Assembly (NCBI GenBank): GCA_964586355.1
Contig: CAZPGO010000035.1
Location: 1 to 30,422 of the forward strand
Source: an uncultured archaeon
GTDB lineage: Archaea; Iainarchaeota; Iainarchaeia; Iainarchaeales; CSSED10-239
Length of the DNA stretch: 30,422 nucleotides
Direction: 5' to 3'
The notes below the pieces were generated by a model. That model saw only the letters and a list, made by a program, of their open reading frames with translations. It ran no database searches and was not told where the DNA came from. The translations under genes were made by a program, and so were the position numbers. Positions 2-30,422 of this stretch are shown one piece after another (the stretch's first letter is position 1; each line of letters starts with the position of its first letter).

Positions 2-1129
2 ACTTCTCCCATTAATTTATCAGCAGGTTCTACTTCTCAATTACCTCTTATTTGTGTGCCCGCTTCTTTATTTAGTTTAAATCTAATTACAGATAATGGT
101 ACTTATGTTCCAATCAACTTAAGTAACATAAATGGATCTATTCCTGATGGTTGTAGAATGGAAGTAGTTGGGAATGGATCTGAGAGTGATTCTTATAAAA
201 TTTATAATGTTTTTCAGTTAAATGATGTGAGAAACTATTTAGATCAAGAGGACATTAATTTTACTTTAGAAAAGAATATTGACTTTGAATGGATTTCTTT
301 AAGTGAGTTTTCTGATATTAATGGTTTTGAGGAATATGATGTTAATGGTTGGTATCCTATTGGAGATAATTGGGATAATACATTTCAAGGAAATTTTGAT
401 GGCAAAGGCAAAACTATTAAAAATCTTTATATTTATAGACCATCACAAAACAATATTGGGTTATTTGGATTTGTAGAAAATTCTGAAATTAAAAATATTG
501 GTGTGGTTGATGTTAATGTTACTGGAAATAGTGATGTTGGAGGATTAATTGGAGTTTTACAAAATTCAAATATTTTTAATGCTTATTCTTCTGGAAATGT
601 TACTGGCCTAGGATATTATATAGGTGGATTAGTTGGATGTGCTATATTAGCTGGTGTTTCTTTGGATAATTCTCACATAATAGATAGTTGTTATTCAACT
701 GCAAATGTATTTGGATCATCTGAAAGTGGTGGATTAATTGGATATTTAGGTTGGGGTAAATTATCTAATAGTTATGCTACTGGTAATGTTATTGGAGAAA
801 ATGTTTCTGGTGGTTTGGTTGGATATTTTGCAGAAGAAGGTGAAGGAGTTATAGAAAATTCATATTCTGTAGGAAATGTTTCTGGAATACCAGTGGTTGG
901 TGGATTAATTGGTTTTAATGGGGAATCTAATTTTAATGGGGAATCTAATTCAGAAGTTAATAATTCTTTTTGGAACACAGAAACTTCTGGTCTATTAACA
1001 AGCGATGGTGGTATAGGAAAAACAACAGAACAAATGAAACAAAGATCTACCTATGTTGGTTGGGATTTTGATACTGTCTGGCAAATTGAAGAAGGAGTTA
1101 CCTATCCTTATCTAAGATCTAATCCATAA
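2..1129 (+). CDS. GLUG-motif repeat surface protein, C-terminal part (5' end lies outside the window)
   Basis: The frame is open from base 2 with no upstream stop, so the GTG at 56 in the ORF track is probably internal. G-G-L-[IV]-G motifs recur about every 25 aa (GGLIG, GGLVG x6). The C-terminal signature FWNTETSG..GIGKTTEQMK..WDFDTVW..YPYL is typical of GLUG (PF07581-type) beta-helical adhesin or protease-associated proteins. Confidence 0.7.
   Translation, partial: TSPINLSAGSTSQLPLICVPASLFSLNLITDNGTYVPINLSNINGSIPDGCRMEVVGNGSESDSYKIYNVFQLNDVRNYLDQEDINFTLEKNIDFEWISLSEFSDINGFEEYDVNGWYPIGDNWDNTFQGNFDGKGKTIKNLYIYRPSQNNIGLFGFVENSEIKNIGVVDVNVTGNSDVGGLIGVLQNSNIFNAYSSGNVTGLGYYIGGLVGCAILAGVSLDNSHIIDSCYSTANVFGSSESGGLIGYLGWGKLSNSYATGNVIGENVSGGLVGYFAEEGEGVIENSYSVGNVSGIPVVGGLIGFNGESNFNGESNSEVNNSFWNTETSGLLTSDGGIGKTTEQMKQRSTYVGWDFDTVWQIEEGVTYPYLRSNP
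913..948. repeat. Perfect 18-bp tandem duplication (ttttaatggggaatctaa x2) inside the GLUG gene
   Basis: Read directly: 913-930 is identical to 931-948. It is in frame and duplicates the hexapeptide FNGESN. Confidence 0.9.
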
Positions 1130-7466: not shown

Positions 7467-7582
7467 GTTAGCGATCATAGGAACAAGGAAACACCTGGAC
7501 CCTTTCCGAACCCAGAAGTTAAGATTGTTACCGTTATTGTTGGCCCTAAGTTCTTTCTTGGAGCTGCAGTTCAGTTGCTAAC
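7467..7582 (+). rRNA. rrf: 5S ribosomal RNA (stand-alone, not linked to 16S/23S in this window)
   Basis: This is the only GC-richer intergenic island. It contains ACACCTGGACCCTTTCCGAACCCAGAAGTTAAG, the universal 5S loop B/C region. The termini GTTAGC / GCTAAC pair as helix I. It is about 116 nt long and followed by T-runs. Confidence 0.85.
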
Positions 7583-7602
7583 TTTTATATTACTCTTTTT
7601 TT
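7583..7602 (+). terminator. Oligo-T termination signals after 5S rRNA
   Basis: TTTT lies directly after the 3' end and a T7 run lies at 7596-7602. Archaeal RNAP terminates at oligo-T. Confidence 0.45.
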
Positions 7603-18706: not shown

Positions 18707-19192
18707 ATGTTAATAGCTTTTTTAGTTTTTACAAATAATATCTTTGCAGCAGACTTAGCAATTACAGATCTTTCTGTGCCAAAAGTTGTTTATGCTGATT
18801 CTAATTTTGATGTGAATATTTATGTTGCAAACACAGATGGGTCTAGGGCTTTTGTTGATCTGAATATTGAATTTTATAGACCTAATATGCCTGTGATGAT
18901 TGTTACAACCAACGCTTTTATTGCTGGCAATTCTATTGGTGTTGTAAATTATGCATTTATTAATGTTGACACAAATTTTTCAAATAGTCAACATATTATA
19001 AGAGCTATTATTACTAATGAAACAAATGAAGATCCAACAAACAACATAGCAACAAAATATTTTGTAGTCTCTAAATCACAAGTAAAAACCCCAGTTCCAG
19101 ACCTGCCTATTTTTTTAGGTATTGCTGTTGGTCTATTTGCTGGTTTTTTTGTAATCTCTTCTAAAAAAAATAAAAAAGGTTCTAATAAATGA
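18707..19192 (+). CDS. Secreted, C-terminally anchored protein with CARDB-like domain (true start may be the upstream ATT/ATC at 18677/18680)
   Basis: 161 aa. DLAITDLSVPKVVYADSNFDVNIYVANTDGS resembles the CARDB N-terminal strand pattern. A C-terminal TM (IFLGIAVGLFAGFFVI) is followed by a Lys-rich tail. Confidence 0.5.
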   Translation: MLIAFLVFTNNIFAADLAITDLSVPKVVYADSNFDVNIYVANTDGSRAFVDLNIEFYRPNMPVMIVTTNAFIAGNSIGVVNYAFINVDTNFSNSQHIIRAIITNETNEDPTNNIATKYFVVSKSQVKTPVPDLPIFLGIAVGLFAGFFVISSKKNKKGSNK

Positions 19193-20109
19193 ATGAAACA
19201 GAAATATCACTTTTAAAAAAATCAGGACAAATAACAAATAAAGCACATAAGTTAGCAAAAAAAATAATTAAGCCAGGAGCTTCTTTTTATGAGGTTGGCA
19301 CAAAAATTGAAAACTTTATAAAAGATCAAGGTGCTTTTCCAGCTTTTCCAATAAACTTGTCCTATAATAATCAAGCAGCACATAATTCCTATAGTGATGA
19401 GGAAGTTATAATAAATGAGGATATGATATTAAAAGTAGATATTGGTTCACAGATTGATGGATATATTACAGATTCTGCACAAACAATTATTTTTAATAAA
19501 AAACATGAGCTTTTAAGAGAAGCAAGTTTTAAGGCTTTACAAGATGCAAAGAAATATATTTCAGAAAACTTAAGTACAGCTAAAGTTAGTGATGTTGGAG
19601 AGATTGTCGAAAATAAGATCTTTTCTTATGGTTTTAGACCAATATGTAATCTTACAGGTCATTTTATATCCATATATGAAACTCATGATCACCCCTCAAT
19701 TCCAAATATCAAAAACAATATTGATTTAAAATTTAGGGATCTTTGTAAAGATAAATGGTTTGCAATAGAACCATTTGCTTCAACTGGTAAGGGAGAGATC
19801 TTTGAAGGTCCAGAAGTTTTTATATTTCAGCATATAGAAGATAGACCAATAAGAAACCAAAATGCAAGAATATTATTAGAAGAGATAAAAGAATTTAATG
19901 GATTACCTTTTTTGGAATACTGGATAGGCAAAAACATCTCTGCCTTTGATAAAAAGTTTGCTCTAAGAGAACTATTAAAGCAACAGATTATTTCTAGTTA
20001 TCCTGTTTTATTAGAAAAACAAGGGGTTTCTATTTCACAATGGGAAACAAGTTTTGCAATATTTAATGATGAATTAATTGATTTGGTGAATATTCATGAG
20101 TTCTACTGA
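19189..20109 (+). CDS. map: Methionine aminopeptidase, type 2 (archaeal)
   Basis: 306 aa. Metal-ligand contexts are present: VDIGSQIDGYITDSAQT, LTGHFI...HD, FAIEPFASTG and SQWETS. It overlaps the upstream gene by 4 nt (ATGA). Confidence 0.85.
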   Translation: MNETEISLLKKSGQITNKAHKLAKKIIKPGASFYEVGTKIENFIKDQGAFPAFPINLSYNNQAAHNSYSDEEVIINEDMILKVDIGSQIDGYITDSAQTIIFNKKHELLREASFKALQDAKKYISENLSTAKVSDVGEIVENKIFSYGFRPICNLTGHFISIYETHDHPSIPNIKNNIDLKFRDLCKDKWFAIEPFASTGKGEIFEGPEVFIFQHIEDRPIRNQNARILLEEIKEFNGLPFLEYWIGKNISAFDKKFALRELLKQQIISSYPVLLEKQGVSISQWETSFAIFNDELIDLVNIHEFY

Positions 20110-21079
20110 CTTTTTAAATAAAAAAAATATTTTTAAGTTATTTTTAATAACATTATCCTTAGTCATTTGGGTTTATTTTTTTGTAGCCAGTAAAGCAAGT
20201 TTAGATTTAATTATAGTTTTTGATCTTCAATCCATAATTAACACCTATTTTACTACTAACTTTTTATTCTTTTTATTATTTTTTCCATTAACCACAATTA
20301 TTGTTATTGCCATGTCCTTTAGTGAGGATAAAAAAATAAACCTGTTAAATATTCTTTTTGGAATGTTAATTGCAATAGTTTTATCTATGATTATTTTTAA
20401 ACTAAGTTATGTTTTTTTAGTGTTTTTAATACTTTATTTAATCTTACATATAGTAATTAGCTTTATTGCCTCAAATAAATATTTAGAAAACCCTGAAAAA
20501 AAGATAATCTCTATTGCAACATCTTTAAATTCCATAATTACTTTACTTTTTTGTTTAGTTTTGTTTTTAACAATTTTTTTAGGAATCTTACCAGATCAAA
20601 AAATAAAAGCAGAACAAATGGAGATTGGTGTGGTTAATCTTTTTGTTGGAGAAGATATTACTAATTGGGTTAATACTTCTTACAGTATTAGTAGGCAATG
20701 CACCTTAGCAAACATAGATTTTATTATGGGCTCATCTCAATATAGGGCTCTTGAGCAAGAAGATGGCAAAGAATCAAAAGCCTTTATAAATTACTTAGAA
20801 AGCCTTAAGGAGAGAAGCCAAGAACCAAAAACAAGTGAGGATATTGTGGCTTTGTATCCTGATATGACCTCTAACAATATACGAACAAATGTTTTAAAGA
20901 CCATTAAATCTATTCCTTTAATGAATATTATAGAGTCCAATTTTGCAATAATCTTTGCTCTTTTAATTATTTTTTTAGTATATTTCTATTTTTGGCTTGC
21001 TTTTTTAATAAGTACGATCTTTGTAGTAATTTTTTATAAAATATTTAATATTAATAAAAATACAGAAAATATAGAATAA
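20096..21079 (+). CDS. Hypothetical polytopic membrane protein (about 5 TM, a soluble loop of about 115 aa, then 2 TM)
   Basis: 327-aa ORF that overlaps map by 14 nt. It has no recognisable motif. Confidence 0.5.
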   Translation: MSSTDFLNKKNIFKLFLITLSLVIWVYFFVASKASLDLIIVFDLQSIINTYFTTNFLFFLLFFPLTTIIVIAMSFSEDKKINLLNILFGMLIAIVLSMIIFKLSYVFLVFLILYLILHIVISFIASNKYLENPEKKIISIATSLNSIITLLFCLVLFLTIFLGILPDQKIKAEQMEIGVVNLFVGEDITNWVNTSYSISRQCTLANIDFIMGSSQYRALEQEDGKESKAFINYLESLKERSQEPKTSEDIVALYPDMTSNNIRTNVLKTIKSIPLMNIIESNFAIIFALLIIFLVYFYFWLAFLISTIFVVIFYKIFNINKNTENIE

Positions 21080-21081
21080 AT

Positions 21082-22422
21082 ATGATAAAAATGAAGTTAA
21101 TGAAAATAACAACACTATTTTTTTTAATCATAATAAGTACATCAATTTTTGCAACATCAACAACCACTGCACAAAATATAGCAAAGCAATATCTTTTAGA
21201 AAATGAGTTCGTGGATGTTAGTGCAAGTAATATCTCTTGTGATGACTCTGATTATTATTTGGTGCCTATAATAGATGTAAAAAGTAATATTGTTTTTTAT
21301 GTTCCAATATCTGCAGAAAATGGAGAAGTCTTTAAAGAAAAAAATCAAGATAATAAGATAAGATCTTTATTTAAATCTTCAAACCTTATCTTTGAGATAA
21401 GTAAAGCAACAAGTAACAACTATCTTACAACTCAGTTAATAGATAAGATTGATTCTTTAAGGCTAGTTTTAGAGTCTAAGGACGCTAGACTTGATGGTAT
21501 TATAAAATCTAATTATTCATCAATAATTACAAATAAAGTAAAAGACACAAAAAACAAATTAACAGCATTAATCTCTCAATTAGAAGATCTGCAAACAAAT
21601 CTTTCAAAAGCACAAAGAGATCAATCCGATTTTTTAGGATCTCCAGATTGTTCAAAAACAGATGCTTTAATCTTAACTTATAAAGATGCTTTTGAAGGTT
21701 ATCAAAATCTAACAAAACAAGCTTTGGATTATAGAGATTCTATTAACTTAATAATTTCAGAAGTTGTGTCAAATGAAGAACTAGATGAAAACACAAAAAG
21801 AGTTGTTTTAAGTTATGTTGAGTCACCAACAAACCTAAGTTCAGATATTAGCATAATTACTCAAAGTGTTTCTTCAACAAAAAGTTTTTATGATCCAATA
21901 GTTTTAGAGCTAGAAAGGTCTGGAGAAAATAGTAAGATTAATGAAATGTTAAATAATTTTAGAGCAAGAGAAGAATATATAGTGGCAAAATCTTTACTAT
22001 ATAATTATGATTCAGATCTAAAAACATCATTAGATCAAAAAATAAAAAACATACTAAATCCTGATGTGGTAAATTTTTATAAAGACCTAGAAACTGTTAC
22101 TAAACTAAGTAGTAATTATGAGCAAATAAATGATCTATATTCTAAAGGAAAATATACAGAAGTAATCCCAAAAATAAAAACTGCAAAAACACAGGCGGAA
22201 AAAATAATAACAGAGGGCTTTAATTATCAACAAGAGGAACCAATAGTAATAAAATATTATTTTATTGTTGTTGGAGTAAGTATTGTTCTTTTAATAATAC
22301 TTTTTATTAATAAAGATAAGATCTTCAAACAAAAAAAGAAAAAGCCAAAAACCACCTCTCCAGAAAAGAAAGAAGTTAATTCTTTAGATTCACTTATGGA
22401 AAGAAACGATCCTTTTAAATAG
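21082..22422 (+). CDS. Hypothetical secreted coiled-coil protein with a PepSY-like N-terminal module and C-terminal TM anchor
   Basis: 446 aa with a signal peptide (LFFLIIISTSIFATSTTTAQ). AQNIAKQYLLEN...YYLVPIID...VPISAENGEVF resembles PepSY. A long heptad-like middle is followed by the TM YYFIVVGVSIVLLIILFI and a KKKKPK tail. Confidence 0.45.
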   Translation: MIKMKLMKITTLFFLIIISTSIFATSTTTAQNIAKQYLLENEFVDVSASNISCDDSDYYLVPIIDVKSNIVFYVPISAENGEVFKEKNQDNKIRSLFKSSNLIFEISKATSNNYLTTQLIDKIDSLRLVLESKDARLDGIIKSNYSSIITNKVKDTKNKLTALISQLEDLQTNLSKAQRDQSDFLGSPDCSKTDALILTYKDAFEGYQNLTKQALDYRDSINLIISEVVSNEELDENTKRVVLSYVESPTNLSSDISIITQSVSSTKSFYDPIVLELERSGENSKINEMLNNFRAREEYIVAKSLLYNYDSDLKTSLDQKIKNILNPDVVNFYKDLETVTKLSSNYEQINDLYSKGKYTEVIPKIKTAKTQAEKIITEGFNYQQEEPIVIKYYFIVVGVSIVLLIILFINKDKIFKQKKKKPKTTSPEKKEVNSLDSLMERNDPFK

Positions 22423-22424
22423 TT

Positions 22425-24473
22425 TTAATTATTTATTTGGTTTAGTTTCTCTTCTGTTGCTTTATACTTGTTAAGAGCTAATTTAAACTCTACATAGTCT
22501 TTTGGGTGTTTTTCAATAAGGTCCTCAATGAATTTTATTCTCTCATTTATTACTTCTAATAAAGTATTTATATTTAGATTATATTCCTTAGAGATATCTT
22601 TTAGAATCTCACTTTTATAAGTAATTGGGAGATCACTTGTAAATAGATCCTCTTTGTGTTTTTCTTTTGGTTGATCTGAATAGTTATATACTGCATTATA
22701 TTCTATTTTATTTTCTTTAATATTAAAACCTCTTACCTCATCAATCTCTTTTATACTTCTTTTGGTCTCACTACCTCCAGAGAACCCACCAACAATAACA
22801 ACATCAAGACTAGTTAATAATGATGGTTCTAAAGAAATTGGTGGGGTTATTAATCTGTTAACAAGATCATTTAGACTTCTTGCGTGTAATGTTGATAAAC
22901 AACAGTGACCAGAAGCCATACCTTGAAACATCAAAGAAATTTCTTCTCCTCTAACTTCACCGATTATCAAGTAATCAGGTCTTTGTCTAAAGGATTCTTT
23001 TATTAGATCCCCCATAGTAACTTCACCATACTTTTTACCAGAATTGTCTGGTGGTCCAAATCCTGGTCTTGTTATGTGGGGTACCCAATTATCTAATAAC
23101 AAATTAATTTCACGAGTATCTTCAATTGATACAACTCTTTTGCCTGGAGGTATAAATGAGGTTATAACATTTAACAAGGTTGTTTTACCAGCAGCAGTTG
23201 GACCAATAATTACTACTGTTTTTCTAAATTCCATAATTGTCCAAAGATAAGCAATTAAAACAGGATTAAGTGTTTTTCCTTTTGCAAGATCTATTGCAGT
23301 TAATGGGTTTTGAGGGAATTTTCTAATAGTGAATGTTGGACCTCTAGTAGAAACATTACTTGTTAGTGTTGCATTTACACGAGATCCATCAGGCAAAATA
23401 GAATCTAATAAAGGTGATGCATATGATACATAACTTTTACAAAGGTGTGCCATCTTTATAACAAACTGTTGTAATTCTTTCTCATCATCATAAACCAGAT
23501 TTGTAGCAAGATTACCATATTTTCTATGAACAATAAAAATAGGTATTCCTGTTCCATCTTGTTCTATATCTTCAATTAGTGGATCATGCATTAATGGTTC
23601 TATAATATCTAGACCTTTTATTTGTTTGCCTATATAATAAATAATATTTGCTTCTTGTTGAGCAGATAATTTTATTTTTTTCTTACTAAATATTTTTTTT
23701 ACTTGTTTTAATAAACTATTTTCATCTTTTAGATCCATTAATGATATTTTGTTTATTAGTTCTTGTTTTGTATCCTCTAATATTTTCTTTTCTTCGTCAT
23801 TTAGTTCTGGTTCAACAACTATATATTTTCTTTCCCCTTCTTTTTCTTCAATCATAGCATAAGCAAAACCAGGTATTAATACTTGATAGTTTTCTGGTTG
23901 TAGTTCTTTAGGTGTTGAAAACTCTGGTCTTTTATCATGTTTTGATATTGTAGAAATTGCGTCTTCTTTTTTAACTTCTTTTTTTGTAATTGTTTTTTTA
24001 CCTCTAAGAGCAAAAAGATTTGTTATGCTATCAGTGAATCTCTTTTGTTCTTTACTAACATAAGCTTTTTGTGTAGAAAAATTAGTTGTTATATTTTTTA
24101 TTTCTGGTTTTTCTACTTTTATTTTCTTTTTGGTTTTAAATAATTTTTTTATTTCTGAAATTACTTTTACATACTTGGATTTTTTATACCTTTTATATTT
24201 TGTGGTATATGGGATATCTAAATTTTTTGAAATATCCAATAATTTATTATTATACTCTAAAAAAAAATTTAAAAATATTTTACAAAGATCTTTGCTTTTT
24301 TTTAAAGAATCATCTTTATCTAGTTCTTTTAATAATTGAGAAGTAGTGATTTCTTTTTTTGCTAATTTTTCAAAAAGCTCTTTTTCTTTATCGGTTCTTT
24401 GATTTTCATTTTCTTTAATTTCTGTTATGAGCTCTAGTAATTTTGACGAATCATTTCTAGATGGTAAGTTCAT
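22425..24473 (-). CDS. Type IV filament / secretion ATPase of the archaeal FlaI(ArlI)/PilB/GspE family, with a Lys-rich N-terminal extension of about 195 aa
   Basis: 682 aa. Motifs present: KYIVVEPELNDEE (archaeal FlaI-type N-domain), Walker A GPTAAGKTT (nt 23178-23204), Asp box VVSIEDTREI, Walker B PDYLIIGEVRGEE and His box GHCCLSTLHA. Confidence 0.85.
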   Translation of the reverse strand: MNLPSRNDSSKLLELITEIKENENQRTDKEKELFEKLAKKEITTSQLLKELDKDDSLKKSKDLCKIFLNFFLEYNNKLLDISKNLDIPYTTKYKRYKKSKYVKVISEIKKLFKTKKKIKVEKPEIKNITTNFSTQKAYVSKEQKRFTDSITNLFALRGKKTITKKEVKKEDAISTISKHDKRPEFSTPKELQPENYQVLIPGFAYAMIEEKEGERKYIVVEPELNDEEKKILEDTKQELINKISLMDLKDENSLLKQVKKIFSKKKIKLSAQQEANIIYYIGKQIKGLDIIEPLMHDPLIEDIEQDGTGIPIFIVHRKYGNLATNLVYDDEKELQQFVIKMAHLCKSYVSYASPLLDSILPDGSRVNATLTSNVSTRGPTFTIRKFPQNPLTAIDLAKGKTLNPVLIAYLWTIMEFRKTVVIIGPTAAGKTTLLNVITSFIPPGKRVVSIEDTREINLLLDNWVPHITRPGFGPPDNSGKKYGEVTMGDLIKESFRQRPDYLIIGEVRGEEISLMFQGMASGHCCLSTLHARSLNDLVNRLITPPISLEPSLLTSLDVVIVGGFSGGSETKRSIKEIDEVRGFNIKENKIEYNAVYNYSDQPKEKHKEDLFTSDLPITYKSEILKDISKEYNLNINTLLEVINERIKFIEDLIEKHPKDYVEFKLALNKYKATEEKLNQINN

Positions 24474-24509
24474 AAATAATCTTTAAAAAAATAATAGTAA
24501 GAAGAGACA

Positions 24510-24857
24510 TTATTGGTCTATTTTTATTTCTTCTTCTCCTTCTACTTCTGCAACTTTATTATATTCTTCTTTTAGTTTTGCAAGATTATCACTAATACTA
24601 TTAACAGTTTCAGCAATATCATCCCAGGCTTCTTTTTTAGCATTTGTGTTTGCTGCAACTCTTTTTTTGTTTATTTCTAACATTGTTGCATAAGAAAATT
24701 TACTTATATCTCCATCATCTAATTTTTTTTTAATATTTTCTAGCTCTTTTTTAATGGTGTCCTCATCATTTTGAGATACTCTTAAAATCTCTAATTTTGC
24801 AATAACAGAATTGCTTAGTTTTTCTATTTCATCTATTATATTTTGTGTTCCTGACAT
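24510..24857 (-). CDS. Hypothetical acidic coiled-coil protein
   Basis: 115 aa, Glu/Lys/Asp-rich with heptad character and no TM segment. It lies 36 nt upstream of the ATPase gene. Confidence 0.45.
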   Translation of the reverse strand: MSGTQNIIDEIEKLSNSVIAKLEILRVSQNDEDTIKKELENIKKKLDDGDISKFSYATMLEINKKRVAANTNAKKEAWDDIAETVNSISDNLAKLKEEYNKVAEVEGEEEIKIDQ

Positions 24858-24867
24858 ATTTATAACC

Positions 24868-25350
24868 TCAATTTTTTAATTGTGTAATTTGATTTTTATT
24901 ATTATATATATTTAAATAATATCCACTAATGTCTATATATGTACAATTACATAAATATATATTCGTATTATTTATAAACCTATCTGTTTTTAGAGTGTTT
25001 TTATTTGCTACTTGGTTAATAATTTCCTCATCTTTTATTAAATTACAAGTATTTCCTGTATAGTTGCTAAAATAAAAACAATTCTCGTCTTCTATTATCG
25101 TACAAAACTTAACCTCTTGTGAATGTGATTTTATATAATTATAAATATTTAGTAATTTTTCATCAATAGTTTCTTCTGAAAGATCACTATTTAAAAGAAC
25201 CTCAAACTCATTATTAAAATTACTAGCAAGCATTTCTTGTTTATAATCTGTTTGAGAAACTTGTTTTTGATTATTTAATATTAGTACACCAGTAATTGAC
25301 ATAATTAAAATTATTGTAACTATTATATATGTAAAGCCTTTTGATTTCAT
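24868..25350 (-). CDS. Putative archaeal type IV pilin-like protein (class III signal peptide)
   Basis: 160 aa. The N-terminus MKSKG/FTYIIVTIILIMSITGVLIL combines a basic residue, Gly, a hydrophobic helix of about 20 residues and a K-G|F-T prepilin-peptidase-type site. The globular part is Cys/Asn/Tyr-rich with 6 Cys. Confidence 0.5.
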   Translation of the reverse strand: MKSKGFTYIIVTIILIMSITGVLILNNQKQVSQTDYKQEMLASNFNNEFEVLLNSDLSEETIDEKLLNIYNYIKSHSQEVKFCTIIEDENCFYFSNYTGNTCNLIKDEEIINQVANKNTLKTDRFINNTNIYLCNCTYIDISGYYLNIYNNKNQITQLKN

Positions 25351-25360
25351 TCATTTCACA

Positions 25361-25717
25361 TTAATAAATAATAATATATAGTGTTTTATTGAGATCTATA
25401 AAATAATAATCATAAGCAATATTTTTAGTAGTTATTACCTCATCACTACTATAAACACAATTATCGTCTAAACTTTCACAAACACTAATTAGGTAGTTTT
25501 GATTTATGTATGGATAAAAGATATCATAAACTAAATCAACATTCTTTAAATTAACAGACTCTCTAAAACCAGAATCTTTTGCTAGAAGGTTAATAATATT
25601 TTGATATTGCTGCTCATATTCTAAATTACAATTAGAGGAACCATACATCTGATAAGCAAATACCAAAAAACCAAATAACATTACTAAAGCTATTGTTAAT
25701 TCAAGAGATTTAATCAA
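25361..25717 (-). CDS. Small N-terminally anchored protein, possible minor pilin-like subunit
   Basis: 118 aa. MIKS/LELTIALVMLFGFLVFAY is followed by a Cys-containing globular part. Ser at position -1 is not a canonical FlaFind site, so the call is weaker than for the 160-aa neighbour. Confidence 0.35.
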   Translation of the reverse strand: MIKSLELTIALVMLFGFLVFAYQMYGSSNCNLEYEQQYQNIINLLAKDSGFRESVNLKNVDLVYDIFYPYINQNYLISVCESLDDNCVYSSDEVITTKNIAYDYYFIDLNKTLYIIIY

Positions 25718-25730
25718 AAATAATCACTTT

Positions 25731-26645
25731 TTAATTCACCATACCATCAAACATATTAGATATAATAGATATAAATTTTTGTTTATCATCTTCTTCTACT
25801 AAATACTCAGGAGGAATAGCATAATAAGCTACTCTATTAGAGTTTGTGGTAACTATTGCAGGAAAAACAGAACCATAGCTTTTCTGATTATTATCAAAAA
25901 GGTTTGTGCTATAGTCTATTTTTAAAGGCACTAGGCTTCTGGAATCTATGGTTTTAACTATTGAATAATTATCATAGATCTGTAAATTTGGATTAAGACC
26001 AAAAATTAAAGGACTATTTCCATGAGAGACAAGTTTACCAGTAATTACTTTTGGGCCACATTCTTTAAGATCACAAAAGTTTGTAACATAGTTTACTCCA
26101 ATAAACTCATTAAATTTCAATAATGTGTTATTTTCTGTAACTCTTACCCATCCGTTGTTATAAGGATAGATCTCCGAATTACTATCAAAATATTGATCGC
26201 CTTGACCCTTAATGGTTCCAGAGTCACCAATCCAAACTAGTCTTCCACCTTGACCTACATAGTCTATAAAAGTTAATAGTTGTAAGGTTGAAACCTTTCT
26301 AGCTTTGTCAACAATAACTAAGCTTGTGTTCTTTAATTGGTCTGGGCTTAAGTAATTTATGTTTCCTGTGTTAACTGTTGCACCGATTAATTTTCTATCA
26401 GAAAGCACATCTTTTAATAGTTCTGGATCTCCCATAGCCTCAGTATCTGTGGGGTCATAAAGTATTAAAACACTTGGTTGGTTTTTTCCAGTTGCTAGTG
26501 TTTGAATACCCCAGTAAATGTTACACCCTCCAGGAATTACTCTGCATCTTATTGTTCCTGACCAAATAAGAATGTATAAAGTTATTATTATTATAATAAT
26601 TAAAAAAATTATTCTGCCAGTCCATTTTTTTTTATTTTGATCCAT
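25731..26645 (-). CDS. Hypothetical N-terminally anchored extracytoplasmic protein (weak GATase1/ThuA/DUF4159-like pattern)
   Basis: 304 aa with the TM RIIFLIIIIIITLYILIW. SVLILYDP...SLVIVDKARKVSTLQLLTFIDYVGQGGRLVWIGDSG resembles the strand-helix-GG pattern of class-I glutamine-amidotransferase-like folds. Unverified. Confidence 0.4.
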   Translation of the reverse strand: MDQNKKKWTGRIIFLIIIIIITLYILIWSGTIRCRVIPGGCNIYWGIQTLATGKNQPSVLILYDPTDTEAMGDPELLKDVLSDRKLIGATVNTGNINYLSPDQLKNTSLVIVDKARKVSTLQLLTFIDYVGQGGRLVWIGDSGTIKGQGDQYFDSNSEIYPYNNGWVRVTENNTLLKFNEFIGVNYVTNFCDLKECGPKVITGKLVSHGNSPLIFGLNPNLQIYDNYSIVKTIDSRSLVPLKIDYSTNLFDNNQKSYGSVFPAIVTTNSNRVAYYAIPPEYLVEEDDKQKFISIISNMFDGMVN

Positions 26646-26749
26646 TTTTGTTCTCTTTTATTTTTTCTATCTATAAATATAATAAAAGATTATTATAAAA
26701 TAGTTTTGTTTTTTATATATATTAATGTTTATTATAAAAGTGATGAAAT

Positions 26750-26923
26750 ATGAAAATGAAATATAACAAATCAGCACAACAAGGACCAAGTTCTGCTATA
26801 GGGATAATGAAATTTAAAGAAGGGCTTAATGGACCAAAACTAACTCCAGAAACAGTTATAGCTTTAGCTGTTGGTTTATGTGTTTTGGTTTTAGTGTTAA
26901 GATTTGTTTTTGGTCTTAGTTAA
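26750..26923 (+). CDS. secG: Preprotein translocase subunit Sec61-beta (archaeal SecG; 57 aa, absent from the ORF track)
   Basis: My translation is MKMKYNKSAQQGPSSAIGIMKFKEGLNGPKLTPETVIALAVGLCVLVLVLRFVFGLS. It matches the archaeal Sec61-beta pattern (P)SSAxG(I/L)(M/I)(K/R)(F/Y)...(P)K(L/I)xPxxV plus a C-terminal TM. An AGTGATG SD lies upstream. Confidence 0.75.
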   Translation: MKMKYNKSAQQGPSSAIGIMKFKEGLNGPKLTPETVIALAVGLCVLVLVLRFVFGLS

Positions 26924-26925
26924 AA

Positions 26926-29802
26926 TCATCTATACTCTTTTTCTTTTTTAGTGTATAAGTAAGAGATCTCTGAAGAATTTAGAGATCTATTATAGATTCT
27001 TGTTTCGCCCAGATATCCATTAAATTTATTTGTCCAACCACTGTTTCCAGCCCACCCAAGATCAGCATATCCTTGGAAAATAATATTTCCTGTATAAGTT
27101 CCTGTTTTTGTTAGAACTCCATTTTTATAAAAATAATAATTTCCAGAATCATAAGTTAAGGTAAGATTACTCCATTCATTTTCTAAAACCACTGCATTAG
27201 TGTTAATTGCTGCTGCTGTTGAGACGCCCAAGGATAAAACACTTGAAGCTGAAAAGCCGATATATAGTCTATTTGTTATCAATTGATGACCAAAGATCAT
27301 TGTTTGAGGGGTAATTGTAATAGGTTTTACCCAAATATTTATTGTTCCAGAATCTCCATTAAAATCTTTTGTTGGTATTCTTACATATGTATCAGATCCA
27401 TTAAAATATCCAGAATTATTAGTAATAATGTTCTCTTTTTTGTAAAAATCTATGATATTTGATCCAAAAATATTTCCATCATTATCAGTAATTTTATCTT
27501 TTAATATTAATGATTTATTATCTCTAAAATCATAATAAGTAACTATGCCACTCTCTATATCTGGAGTATTGGTGTCAATTGCGAAATTAAATGGTTTAAT
27601 TAGCAGATTAACTAAATAATTATTTCCAAAATTATCAATATATTTAAAATAATTAGAATATATTTTATTTTCCATATTAATTTCTCTACCTTTTTTTAGA
27701 TCAATTGTTTTTTGATCCTTTATTTCTAAGAAATAATTATTTGGATCTAAGTTGTTTATATATTCTTCAAAAACAACCCTTTCCTTATTTTTTATAATAT
27801 TTATATTTGGATAGTCTGTGTAATCAGTAACCTCAAGATCTCTAGATCTTATTTTTATTAGTGCATCATTTGAACAACTATTAATAGTAATTTTATTATT
27901 TTTATAAGTATAATTACAATCAATTGGTAAATTTGTATTTGAATCAAAGAAATCAATTATTATTTTTTTTCTATTTGTATTTAGATCTATTAATTCAATT
28001 TTTTTATTTTCAAAATTTACTCCAGAGTTAACATCAAGATCATATTTTTGAGAAAGATAGTTTTCTACAAGTAAACGGTTGGAATCAGATAATGCTGAAT
28101 TAAAAAGTAATATTTCTGAAATATGCATATCTGTTGCTCTTTGATCAACATTTAAGCTGTTCCAAGAACCAATTGCGATAGTGTTTTCACTAGTGGTGGT
28201 TGAAGTTACTGTTCCTGTTACTTCTTCGGTGCCAGAAATAATTTTATGTGTTGTTCCTTCTCTTATATTTTGAATTATGTGCCATTGTTCATCAGGTATT
28301 GAAATAAATCTACCGTATGGTACACTTGTTTCTTTAACACCACCACCCCAGGAATTTGCAGAGCTACCATTTCTTCCTAACCAAAAACCGTTTGTGTAAC
28401 TATGATCTAGTATTCTTTCAAATGTCGATACTGTTGAATGATCTTTGAATAATACAAAGATTGTCCAATCATTTAGAGAAAAATTATTTTCAGTAAGTAA
28501 TGCTGAATTATTAAATAATATAGCTGGTTTTCCATTTAAAATATTTTCTTTAAAAACCGGTTTATTACCGTCATTATCTTGTATAGCATGATTATCATTT
28601 CCACTAAGATCTGTCCAACTACTAACAAGATCATTATCATTTAAACTAAGCGAAGAAGCATCCAACCAAAGTTTTAGATCTTCTGTGAAATTAACATCTA
28701 GATCTATTCCTAAATTATAATCAAGATCAATAATTAAAGAATCAGTTTCATCCTTAAAAGCCCAAAACTCTTTAGTTTGTGAAAAAAAAATCAATTTTTC
28801 TTTTTCTGTGTTGTTTTTTATTATAGCTATTTCTTTTGAATCTGGCACAACTAAAATTTCAGAAAAATCAAATGATAAATTATAATTTATTTTTAAAAAA
28901 GAAATATTTGCATTTGTATCCTCTATCTCCACATAAAACTCATTAGATTCTATTGTTTTATCTGCACTTTTTGAATGTAGATCATTACTTTCAAAACCAA
29001 GAATTTTTGAGATGTTGATTGTATCGGTATTTTCAATAATTATTTTTCCAACATCTATTGTAGAATTAAGATCTAAATTTGTTGTTTTATCCACATAACA
29101 AAAAGAAATCTTGCTTAATTTATTTGATCCAAAATAAACTTTTTTCCAAGATTTTGTTGTAATTATATTATTTGTCTCTGAATCTATTATTATTCCATTG
29201 GAGATCTCTTTAAGTGTTTGTTGATTATTTTTAATTTCACATTCATAGTAACTGTTAGTGTCTTCATTATAATTAAATTTTATATTTAGACTAGAACCCA
29301 TAAAATCAATAACCCCAATAACATCTCTAAACTCTTTTTTTGAGATCAGTTGTGTGTTTGCTTCTAAATAAATGGTGTCATACATATTTGTTGGTGTGTT
29401 TCCAAAATTAACATCAAAATAATTAAATTCTCCATTTAAAAAAGACTCATCAATTACTTTTGTACCAAGAGTGTTTTTTGTATCTGTAAGTTTTTCATTT
29501 GCATATAATTCTGTTTGTTTATTTATTGTGCCATAGACATAATTATCTTTTATAATTGGATTATTAGATTTAATTGTATTTTCATCTATTTTTAATCTAA
29601 ACGGATAATTTTCTTGATCAGTATTGTTTAACTTAACAGTGTATTGGTCATAAAAATCAGCAATCTCAAAAGAAATAGTGTTTGCACTAATGTCTGGTGT
29701 TTGATTATCTGTAAGATCTAATGTTTGTGGTAAAGTTATTATTACAAAAGAAATTACTATTAAAAAAATTACTGAAGAAATAATCCAGTCAATATATTCC
29801 AT
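26926..29802 (-). CDS. Large N-terminally anchored surface protein with two LamG/concanavalin-A-like lectin domains
   Basis: 958 aa with the N-terminal TM WIISSVIFLIVISFVIITL. LamG-like domain 1 spans about aa 375-586 (LKLWLDASSL..WTDLSGNDNHA..NGKPAILF...ISEILLFNSALSDSNRLLVENYLSQKY). LamG domain 2 spans about aa 752-950 (VTYYDFRDN..GYFNGSDTYVRIP..GTINIWVKP..WSNLTLTYDSGNYYFYKNG..FNGYLGETRIYNRSLNSSEISYLY). The first 370 aa or so match no family I recognise. Confidence 0.7.
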   Translation of the reverse strand: MEYIDWIISSVIFLIVISFVIITLPQTLDLTDNQTPDISANTISFEIADFYDQYTVKLNNTDQENYPFRLKIDENTIKSNNPIIKDNYVYGTINKQTELYANEKLTDTKNTLGTKVIDESFLNGEFNYFDVNFGNTPTNMYDTIYLEANTQLISKKEFRDVIGVIDFMGSSLNIKFNYNEDTNSYYECEIKNNQQTLKEISNGIIIDSETNNIITTKSWKKVYFGSNKLSKISFCYVDKTTNLDLNSTIDVGKIIIENTDTINISKILGFESNDLHSKSADKTIESNEFYVEIEDTNANISFLKINYNLSFDFSEILVVPDSKEIAIIKNNTEKEKLIFFSQTKEFWAFKDETDSLIIDLDYNLGIDLDVNFTEDLKLWLDASSLSLNDNDLVSSWTDLSGNDNHAIQDNDGNKPVFKENILNGKPAILFNNSALLTENNFSLNDWTIFVLFKDHSTVSTFERILDHSYTNGFWLGRNGSSANSWGGGVKETSVPYGRFISIPDEQWHIIQNIREGTTHKIISGTEEVTGTVTSTTTSENTIAIGSWNSLNVDQRATDMHISEILLFNSALSDSNRLLVENYLSQKYDLDVNSGVNFENKKIELIDLNTNRKKIIIDFFDSNTNLPIDCNYTYKNNKITINSCSNDALIKIRSRDLEVTDYTDYPNINIIKNKERVVFEEYINNLDPNNYFLEIKDQKTIDLKKGREINMENKIYSNYFKYIDNFGNNYLVNLLIKPFNFAIDTNTPDIESGIVTYYDFRDNKSLILKDKITDNDGNIFGSNIIDFYKKENIITNNSGYFNGSDTYVRIPTKDFNGDSGTINIWVKPITITPQTMIFGHQLITNRLYIGFSASSVLSLGVSTAAAINTNAVVLENEWSNLTLTYDSGNYYFYKNGVLTKTGTYTGNIIFQGYADLGWAGNSGWTNKFNGYLGETRIYNRSLNSSEISYLYTKKEKEYR

Positions 29803-29853
29803 ATTTTATCTAATATATTATAGTTATTATCTTTAAATAATTTTTCTTTTTAG

Positions 29854-30231
29854 TTATTTAAAGGTAATTTTCTTATTTGCAAAAAAATACCAATAAAATA
29901 GAATAAAATTTGCAATTATTTGTGCAAATATGTACCAAATATTTAATATTGATACAATAAATCCTACTAAAAACAAATTTATAATTAATCCAATAAAATA
30001 GATTGTTATGTATTTGGAATATTGTCTAAAAACACATTTTTTCTGATTACAGAAAGTATATTTTTTTTGAAAAATAAAACCAGTAAATGATGATGCCATA
30101 AAAGATATTGTTACTGCTAATAAATAAAAGATTTTAAAAAAATCTACTAATATAAATAATAATATTAATTCAAATATAGCAATAAGTATACCGATTCTAG
30201 CATATTTTTTCATTTGTTTTTTTGTGGTCAT
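29854..30231 (-). CDS. GtrA-family membrane protein
   Basis: 125 aa with 4 TM. The layout and the motif ...FTGFIFQKKYTF match GtrA (PF04138-type) small polyisoprenyl-sugar-associated membrane proteins. Confidence 0.6.
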   Translation of the reverse strand: MTTKKQMKKYARIGILIAIFELILLFILVDFFKIFYLLAVTISFMASSFTGFIFQKKYTFCNQKKCVFRQYSKYITIYFIGLIINLFLVGFIVSILNIWYIFAQIIANFILFYWYFFANKKITFK

Positions 30232-30422
30232 ATTTTTTCTTTTTTTTCTTTAAATGTTAGATTTTTATTAGCAGTATAATTCCAAACAAATCCTACTACT
30301 ATTGCAAAACCTTTTGCAAATATATACCACATATTTGTGTAATCCACTAAGATCTTTAAAACAAACAAGTTTAGAAATAATCCCACGGTTGAAATGATTG
30401 AAAACATATAGAATTGAAATAA
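30228..30422 (-). CDS. Second GtrA-family membrane protein, C-terminal 64 aa only (rest outside the window)
   Basis: My translation of the minus strand is LFQFYMFSIISTVGLFLNLFVLKILVDYTNMWYIFAKGFAIVVGFVWNYTANKNLTFKEKKEKI*. The (F)xWNYxxN(K/R)xxTF ending is the GtrA hallmark. Its TGA overlaps the ATG of the next GtrA gene (ATGA). Confidence 0.6.
   Translation of the reverse strand, partial: LFQFYMFSIISTVGLFLNLFVLKILVDYTNMWYIFAKGFAIVVGFVWNYTANKNLTFKEKKEKI

Follow-up and report, generated by a model that had tools for sequence, protein, structure and literature searches.

A clade-specific DPANN locus that appears to be the middle segment of an adhesive type IV pilus operon, with its ATPase uncoupled from platform genes

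Archaeal machines of the type IV filament (T4F, also TFF) superfamily are described as sharing a fixed core: in two censuses the ATPase, the platform protein, the prepilin peptidase and the pilin are universal, and the combination of ATPase and platform is invariable (PMC4858521; bioRxiv 10.64898/2026.04.22.720090). An earlier note on the DNA treated here, which had the ATPase of every described system paired with a platform, agrees with both. That DNA, called the window throughout, is the 30,422-nucleotide (nt) contig CAZPGO010000035.1 of an uncultured archaeon of the Iainarchaeota (GenBank assembly GCA_964586355.1), and in it a FlaI/PilB/GspE-family ATPase gene closes a tight block of genes that includes pilin-like proteins and no platform protein. 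The locus resembles the two-platform loci of DPANN and euryarchaeal lineages (‘system 1’ or ‘subsystem 4A’ in bioRxiv 10.64898/2026.04.22.720090, clades 1/4 in PMC4858521) in its orthologous ATPase, in the gene order f118-f160-f115 and in a LamG adhesin with an MxYIDW N terminus. It differs from them in that neither T2SSFa nor T2SSFb, the two platform genes, follows the ATPase, in that pilins of the KG↓VSP type (the arrow marks the prepilin-type site) are missing, and in that a gene pair for Sec61beta and a ThuA/GIFT-like protein is inserted. Judged by gene content and homology, the locus appears to be the middle segment of the known DPANN adhesive type IV pilus operon, in a clade-specific variant whose ATPase has been uncoupled from the platform genes.

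The complete operon is represented by the sister loci L030, L011, L032, L033 and L106 (L numbers denote the loci compared here; f304, f118, f160 and f115 are the proteins of 304, 118, 160 and 115 amino acids (aa) of the window). In L030, whose ATPase is 55% identical to that of the window, three KG↓V-type pilins are followed by a 2211-aa adhesin beginning MHYIDW, by homologues of f118 (8.6e-17), f160 (1.4e-22) and f115 (1.8e-30), and by the ATPase, an HD hydrolase, T2SSFa and T2SSFb; the other four loci are equivalent. Sister ATPases are about 50-55% identical to ours over the catalytic part, and their N-terminal extensions are not alignable. A motif scan of JGI metagenomes, with motifs taken from a narrower T2SSF alignment, added 71 further DPANN loci, nearly all of which, where the flank is present, show the order ATPase-T2SSFa-T2SSFb, in most cases with two pilin genes next to it on the opposite strand. 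Many of them also contain a three-gene module of a ~232-aa ‘MASQIDF’ protein, an f118-like and an f160-like protein, in which the MASQIDF gene always precedes the f118-like one. The accessory set of the two-platform loci, an MxYIDW adhesin and f118-, f160- and f115-like genes upstream of the ATPase, is found in the window as well. The accessory genes are thus no orphans, as the earlier note had taken them to be: hhalign and hidden Markov model (HMM) comparisons show that the f118, f160 and f115 families are shared with platform-bearing DPANN loci.

The block itself consists of the genes for f304, f118, f160, f115 and the ATPase, all on the minus strand and separated by 13, 10, 10 and 36 nt according to the coordinates of their open reading frames (ORFs). 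A convergent gene for a 446-aa protein runs up to position 22422 and leaves 2 nt to the stop codon of the ATPase gene. This confirms the coordinates of the five genes, the spacers of 10-36 nt and the convergent neighbor as first described, while the operon boundary was drawn too narrowly, as the upstream 958-aa LamG adhesin belongs to the locus. The contig is archaeal, has a GC content of ~26% and carries genes for TBP, FtsZ, PolB, AglB, Spt5, L11 and Sec61beta. Together with L006, L008, L010 and L012-L024 the window forms an in-clade set of 17 loci (GC 0.24-0.29), some members of which carry the label Candidatus Iainarchaeum. Gene order is constant in all 17. An adhesin with LamG or DUF2341 comes first, then Sec61beta, encoded on the other strand, then f304, the genes for the ~118-, ~160- and ~115-aa proteins and the ATPase. 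Convergent with these follow the genes for a surface protein of ~446 aa, a polytopic protein of ~327 aa, MetAP and a surface protein of ~161 aa. An identical ATPase occurs on nine public contigs, and relatives at 51-80% identity, the range seen among the 17 loci, lie on contigs of up to 0.98 Mb. The ratios of nonsynonymous to synonymous substitution (dN/dS) against the L006 orthologues are 0.064 for f304, 0.21 for f118, 0.30 for f160, 0.24 for f115 and 0.125 for the ATPase, and all five genes and the adhesin are under purifying selection. Because the order is constant in 17 loci and dN/dS lies at 0.06-0.30, the block is a real arrangement maintained by selection and not one of chance.

The 682-aa ATPase (22425..24473, minus strand) belongs to the PilB/FlaI/GspE/TadA family of T4F ATPases. 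It matches Pfam T2SSE at 1.2e-30 and NCBIfam FlaI at 1.5e-94 (317.7 bits, under the 550-bit cut-off of that model), among solved structures A. fulgidus GspE (2OAP, 6e-91) and FlaI (4II7, 8e-66) come closest, and 7023 homologues were found at E<=1e-20. All four nucleotide-binding boxes can be recognized, Walker A (GPTAAGKTT) at residue 424, the Asp box (IEDTREI) at 450, Walker B (LIIGEVR) at 502 and the His box (TLHA) at 528, which bears out the description of the genes as a type IV filament-type set with a FlaI/PilB-family ATPase whose boxes are intact. A Lys-rich N-terminal extension of ~200 aa completes the protein. Directly upstream, here as everywhere, lies f115 (24510..24857, minus strand), a predicted cytoplasmic alpha-helical or coiled-coil protein that is indeed acidic, with an isoelectric point of 4.67, and has no transmembrane (TM) segment; its orthologues occupy the same position in L030, L032 (5.9e-19) and L033 (1.9e-14). 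Two more specific assignments of the ATPase were rejected. For an archaellum, the FlaI model scores too low, and no KaiC-like ArlH, ArlJ or archaellin family was found in the window; for a bindosome (BasE), scores fall far under the cut-offs and the partner genes are missing.

Of the two small pilin-like proteins, f160 (24868..25350, minus strand) shows both marks of a pilin, a class III-type signal peptide with predicted cleavage (MKSKG↓FTYIIV) and a hydrophobic N-terminal helix: the site [KR]G↓FTY[IV] is followed by ~20 hydrophobic residues. Across 16 orthologues F6, C83 and C136 never change and K4, G5, T7, Y8 and I9 hardly do, so that the prepilin-type site noticed at the outset is a feature of the family. 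It would imply a prepilin peptidase acting in trans. The strict patterns of FlaFind and PilFind would presumably not match f160, which has a Tyr at +3 and no E5. Full-length similarity to the protein d201 of L011 (hhalign, 86% probability) and HMM matches in L011, L033, L081, L106 and L030 connect the protein to the sister loci. Its neighbor f118 (25361..25717, minus strand) is built as a short N terminus, MIKSLE, a hydrophobic helix of ~20 residues and a Cys-containing globular part, and is related to d132 of L011 (hhalign, 95% probability) and, by HMM, to 15 ORFs of platform-bearing loci. Public gene calls on identical contigs begin at an internal ATG and give a protein of 106 aa. The TTG start that yields 118 aa is nevertheless the correct one, because 15 orthologues have ATG at that codon and share the N terminus M[IT]K[ST]xE. 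In our alignment A8, the initiator Met of in-clade f118 coincides with the +1 residue after KG↓ (or HS↓, KA↓) in homologues of other lineages, and E6 (Glu at +6), C80, C87 and Y104 are invariant. f118 is therefore a pilin-like protein of the class III type that has no leader. The same alignment shows this leaderless start in L011, L030, L035 and L106. Of the two small proteins, f160 with its KG↓FTY site thus has a predicted class III-type signal peptide, and f118 is leaderless though homologous to proteins with a KG↓ leader.

The third helix-anchored protein is the 958-aa adhesin (26926..29802, minus strand), in which Pfam Laminin_G_3 (2.9e-25) matches two stretches, corresponding to two LamG (concanavalin A-like) domains. 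Its N terminus, MEYIDWIISS, is hydrophobic, pilin-like and leaderless; the pattern M[EDQ][YH][IV]DW is kept in 11 related loci and resembles the MHYIDWVVGS of the 2211-aa FG-GAP/LamG adhesin in L030. N termini of this type (MEYIDW, MHYIDW or MASQIDF) are leaderless wherever they were observed. On this resemblance, the LamG protein is the orthologue of the sister-locus adhesin and a part of the pilus module. The leaderless forms alone give no sign of a peptidase-free machine, because they are present in T2SSF-bearing loci, too, and the conserved site of f160 speaks for a peptidase.

The adhesin region also varies within a population. L001, from the same population, is nucleotide-identical to the window over ~12 kb except for five isolated mismatches, and differs from it by ~20%, with several indels, at 28600-30300, a stretch that covers adhesin codons ~1-400 and two GtrA genes (29854-30231 and 30228-30407). 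The two adhesins share 85% amino-acid identity with a dN/dS of 0.46, and both contigs end just past the variable stretch. The N-terminal half of the adhesin thus varies among otherwise identical co-occurring strains, and the variable 1.7 kb look like a recombination-swapped or hypervariable segment for host contact or glycosylation. In eight in-clade loci (L008:3297-5615; L013, L016-L020 and L023), two extra conserved genes lie directly upstream of the adhesin, encoding a 278-aa cytoplasmic coiled-coil protein (b278) and a ~493-aa N-anchored extracellular protein (b493); in the window and L006, GtrA-family genes occupy their place.

But what about the platform? Family searches (Pfam and others) of the 19 largest ORFs of the window gave neither a T2SSF nor an A24 peptidase match, and HMMs for T2SSF found none among all window ORFs of at least 45 aa, in keeping with the earlier statement that the window holds no platform or prepilin peptidase gene. 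A T2SSF-like gene is likewise missing within ~10 kb in all 17 in-clade loci (Pfam on window ORFs; blastp; HMMs), and in ~400 kb of in-clade sequence, all from one syntenic region, neither blastp nor HMMs built from 47 and 54 sequences and run with filters off nor two sequence motifs detected T2SSF. A word-indexed protein search with T2SSFa of L030 returned seven matches, none of them on in-clade contigs. Canonical pilins are absent from the in-clade locus within the stretches read, so that neither the two T2SSF genes after the ATPase nor KG↓V-type pilins are found at the locus in any of the 17 cases. The absence of the platform is no assembly accident, because it holds in all 17 loci, whereas sister loci carry two T2SSF genes right after the ATPase. 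The synteny comparison suggested in the earlier note thus has two sides: within the clade the platform is consistently missing, but the sister loci combine T2SSF with the same accessory genes.

The place that T2SSF occupies in sister loci is taken by the convergent genes for the 446-aa surface protein and the 327-aa polytopic protein (20096..22422, plus strand), which are kept in 17 of the 17 in-clade loci. The 446-aa protein has a Sec signal and a C-terminal anchor, suggesting a surface location, and the 327-aa protein is predicted to have seven TM segments; its gene lies 1.3 kb from the 3′ end of the ATPase gene, and there is a 14-nt overlap between its start and the MetAP stop. At 18707-22422 on the plus strand, MetAP is in fact embedded in an operon with the 161-aa and 446-aa surface proteins, both with C-terminal anchors, and the seven-TM protein. 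The 161-, 446- and 327-aa families have no match in any compared locus outside the clade. The 446- and 327-aa proteins are no more than candidate parts of the pilus machine. On the present sequence evidence, we rejected the 327-aa protein as a cryptic platform (hhalign gives ~1% against T2SSF, T2SSF HMMs with filters off are negative, and Pfam, NCBIfam and PDB profiles return nothing) and as an A24 peptidase (it has no invariant Asp). The same holds for b278 and b493 as divergent TadC proteins: the former has no TM segment and the latter a single anchor, and hhalign is negative.

The remaining gene of the block, f304 (25731..26645, minus strand), is set apart from the others by its relatives. 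Searches with the single sequence found no family, as the earlier note had said of it. The 17 family members taken together give Pfam matches that all lie under the gathering or curated cut-offs, with PF09822 ABC_transp_aux (GldG-like) in 14, DUF4350 in six, IFT52_GIFT in four, and ThuA in some; HMMER found 127 relatives among 1.84 billion representative proteins. An AlphaFold2 model built from an alignment with 38 relatives reaches a pLDDT of 92.1 and a pTM of 0.90 (pLDDT 36 from the single sequence), and Foldseek aligns it with ThuA-like 4pxy (E 1.5e-08), domain B of GH42 galactosidase and IFT52 (5fms) at a probability of 1.00 and target TM-scores of 0.56-0.68. The model thus predicts f304 to be a membrane-anchored extracytoplasmic protein with the ThuA/GIFT fold (class I glutamine-amidotransferase-like), and the verdict of an unrecognizable family no longer stands. 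From ThuA, the GIFT proteins GldG and IFT52 and GH42 domain B, whose fold it would share, f304 differs by its membrane anchor, its extracytoplasmic location and its conserved cysteines, four of which are invariant in-clade. No Cys-His-Glu catalytic triad is evident among its invariant residues.

The gene for f304 also has a partner of its own. Sec61beta (26750..26923, plus strand; Pfam Sec61_beta 4.9e-08), a housekeeping landmark, is divergent from it across the spacer 26646-26749, and the same divergent pair occurs in L106 (3595-5856) and L107 (9658-10948), i.e. in at least three DPANN lineages. In L106 it lies beside a complete ATPase-T2SSFa-T2SSFb operon and is convergent with it; in L107 there is no pilus gene within 10 kb. 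Because the pair is kept whether or not pilus genes adjoin, f304 is no established pilus part. It is probably a surface protein linked to Sec61beta that is co-transcribed here and not a dedicated pilus component. In L103 (3350-4183), from another DPANN lineage, an f304 homologue is followed by a thioredoxin-fold/CcdA-like membrane fusion, a neighbor that fits a need of the f304 cysteine pairs for extracytoplasmic disulfide chemistry.

How could an ATPase function that has lost its platform from the locus? The most economical reading, which we regard as probable without being confident of it, is that genes elsewhere in the genome supply platform, peptidase and filament pilins. The normal order is canonical pilins, giant adhesin, f118-like, f160-like, coiled-coil, ATPase, T2SSFa and T2SSFb; in the low-GC clade, the platform and canonical pilin genes are gone from the locus, and the Sec61beta/f304 pair has come to lie between the adhesin gene and those of the minor pilins. 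The hexameric ATPase and its small coiled-coil partner would power assembly, and f118 (leaderless), f160 (processed by the peptidase) and the LamG adhesin, through its pilin-like helix, would form a priming or tip complex whose lectin domains serve in attachment, with a host cell as the plausible target. A TadB/C-like platform, the prepilin peptidase and the filament-forming pilins would be supplied from other loci. We favor this split system because L030-type loci hold the same set with T2SSF and the module of IDF, f118-like and f160-like proteins recurs, because the five genes and the adhesin are under purifying selection, and because archaeal pilins are known to act in trans to PilB3/PilC3 (PMC4858521). 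Parts encoded in trans are required anyway, because the near-invariance of KG↓FTY in f160 only makes sense with a class III signal peptidase elsewhere. The Haloferax volcanii machine, with PilA1-6 in trans to PilB3-PilC3, is likewise split and still works (PMC4858521); there, however, it is the pilins that are encoded apart from the ATPase-platform pair, whereas here the ATPase has kept its pilin-like neighbors and lacks the platform. Several points weigh against a split system. Searches of the ~20-30 kb available per in-clade genome turned up neither T2SSF nor an A24 peptidase nor a canonical pilin. The 71 loci of the two-motif T2SSFa scan all have a GC of at least 0.31 and lie outside the two in-clade JGI contigs of 0.66 and 0.69 Mb, although every sister T2SSFa carries both motifs, including that of L106, which was outside the motif-building set; this negative is weak, as the motifs may have drifted and the samples of the large contigs may lie outside the scanned collection. 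Published censuses describe ATPase and platform as a unit, which makes a split between these two unusual (PMC4858521; bioRxiv 10.64898/2026.04.22.720090). Finally, in L030 the canonical pilin genes open the operon and the platform genes close it, which would require two separate relocations or losses.

These same negatives could mean that the T2SSF platform, and perhaps the long-filament pilins too, were truly lost in the clade, with ATPase and coiled-coil protein using another membrane partner or the pilin-like helices directly and a short stub or anchoring complex displaying the LamG adhesin. We consider such a loss unlikely, but not so unlikely as to be set aside. Its furthest form, a motor free of platform and filament pilins in which leaderless pilin-like helices insert or display the lectin adhesin for host attachment in the whole clade, is a little more doubtful still. 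A loss would account for the lack of platform genes, throughout the clade, at the very place where T2SSF is found in sister loci, for canonical pilins that are equally absent from the locus, and for a motif scan without a match on the large in-clade contigs. That two of the three helix-anchored proteins are leaderless would fit as well, but the four T2SSF-bearing loci named above (L011, L030, L035 and L106) also have leaderless f118 and adhesin proteins, so that the leaderless state is not tied to loss, and f160 retains its peptidase site. The conserved seven-TM protein close to the 3′ end of the ATPase gene offers a possible partner; yet it has no T2SSF signal, its sole large loop is predicted by the positive-inside rule to be extracytoplasmic, and its gene is translationally coupled to MetAP and not to the pilus genes. 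To our knowledge, no T4F-family ATPase works without a platform of the PilC/TadC/ArlJ type. Besides the haloarchaeal systems with their pilins in trans, the only partial precedent is subclade 4D of the Thermoproteales, where ATPases without a recognizable TadC are accompanied by unrelated small membrane proteins with four to five TM segments (PMC4858521), but these loci have a transcription-related context and no secreted or pilin-like genes, whereas here pilin-like genes and an adhesin are present. Could the five genes be no single unit at all? f304 would then be a housekeeping gene that landed before a four-gene pilus remnant, and the ATPase would have been re-used, for instance in adhesin secretion or DNA uptake, which seems improbable to us. 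The Sec61beta/f304 pair does stand without pilus genes in L107, as a separate convergent unit beside the complete operon in L106 and, for the f304 homologue of L103, next to thioredoxin-CcdA, and its dN/dS makes f304 far more conserved than the pilin-like genes. However, in every one of the 17 in-clade loci a gap of only 2-23 nt separates f304 from f118, which follows it on the same strand, so that f304 must at least be co-expressed, the order f118-f160-f115-ATPase is that of working sister operons, and nothing points to a particular alternative substrate. As for a decaying, functionless remnant, the loss of both ends of the ancestral operon is what decay might leave behind, but the ORFs are intact in 17 loci at 51-80% ATPase identity, the catalytic motifs are preserved, and the selection data given above effectively refute this explanation, which we rate as extremely improbable.

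Finally, we would like to place the split system and its adhesin into a wider context. Small pilin-like proteins encoded beside a large adhesin recall the minor-pilin/PilY1 tip complexes of bacteria, and a lectin module on a pilin-like helix recalls the lectin-bearing pilins of Streptococcus sanguinis (PMC9934059, PMC8179133), a comparison that is by analogy and not from sequence homology, with the difference that some of the archaeal proteins are leaderless. In these reduced archaea, host contact is most plausibly made by the pilin-like proteins and the LamG adhesin. Detection models that rely on ATPase and platform at one locus would miss or mis-score such a clade, which is also a natural test of whether a platform is able to work in trans or is not needed at all: if T2SSF and A24 genes lie elsewhere in complete genomes of the clade, the locus is part of an ordinary split operon, and if the platform is truly lost, the clade would hold a type IV filament machine that is the first of its superfamily to do without one.

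Some features of the window lie outside the locus. No tRNA genes were found in its 30 kb, and the sole Rfam family is a stand-alone 5S rRNA gene (7467-7583, plus strand; 62.9 bits) just downstream of TBP. Near the contig start, an ORF with GLUG-motif repeats (56-1129, plus strand; Pfam Glug 4.4e-10) probably encodes another large surface adhesin.

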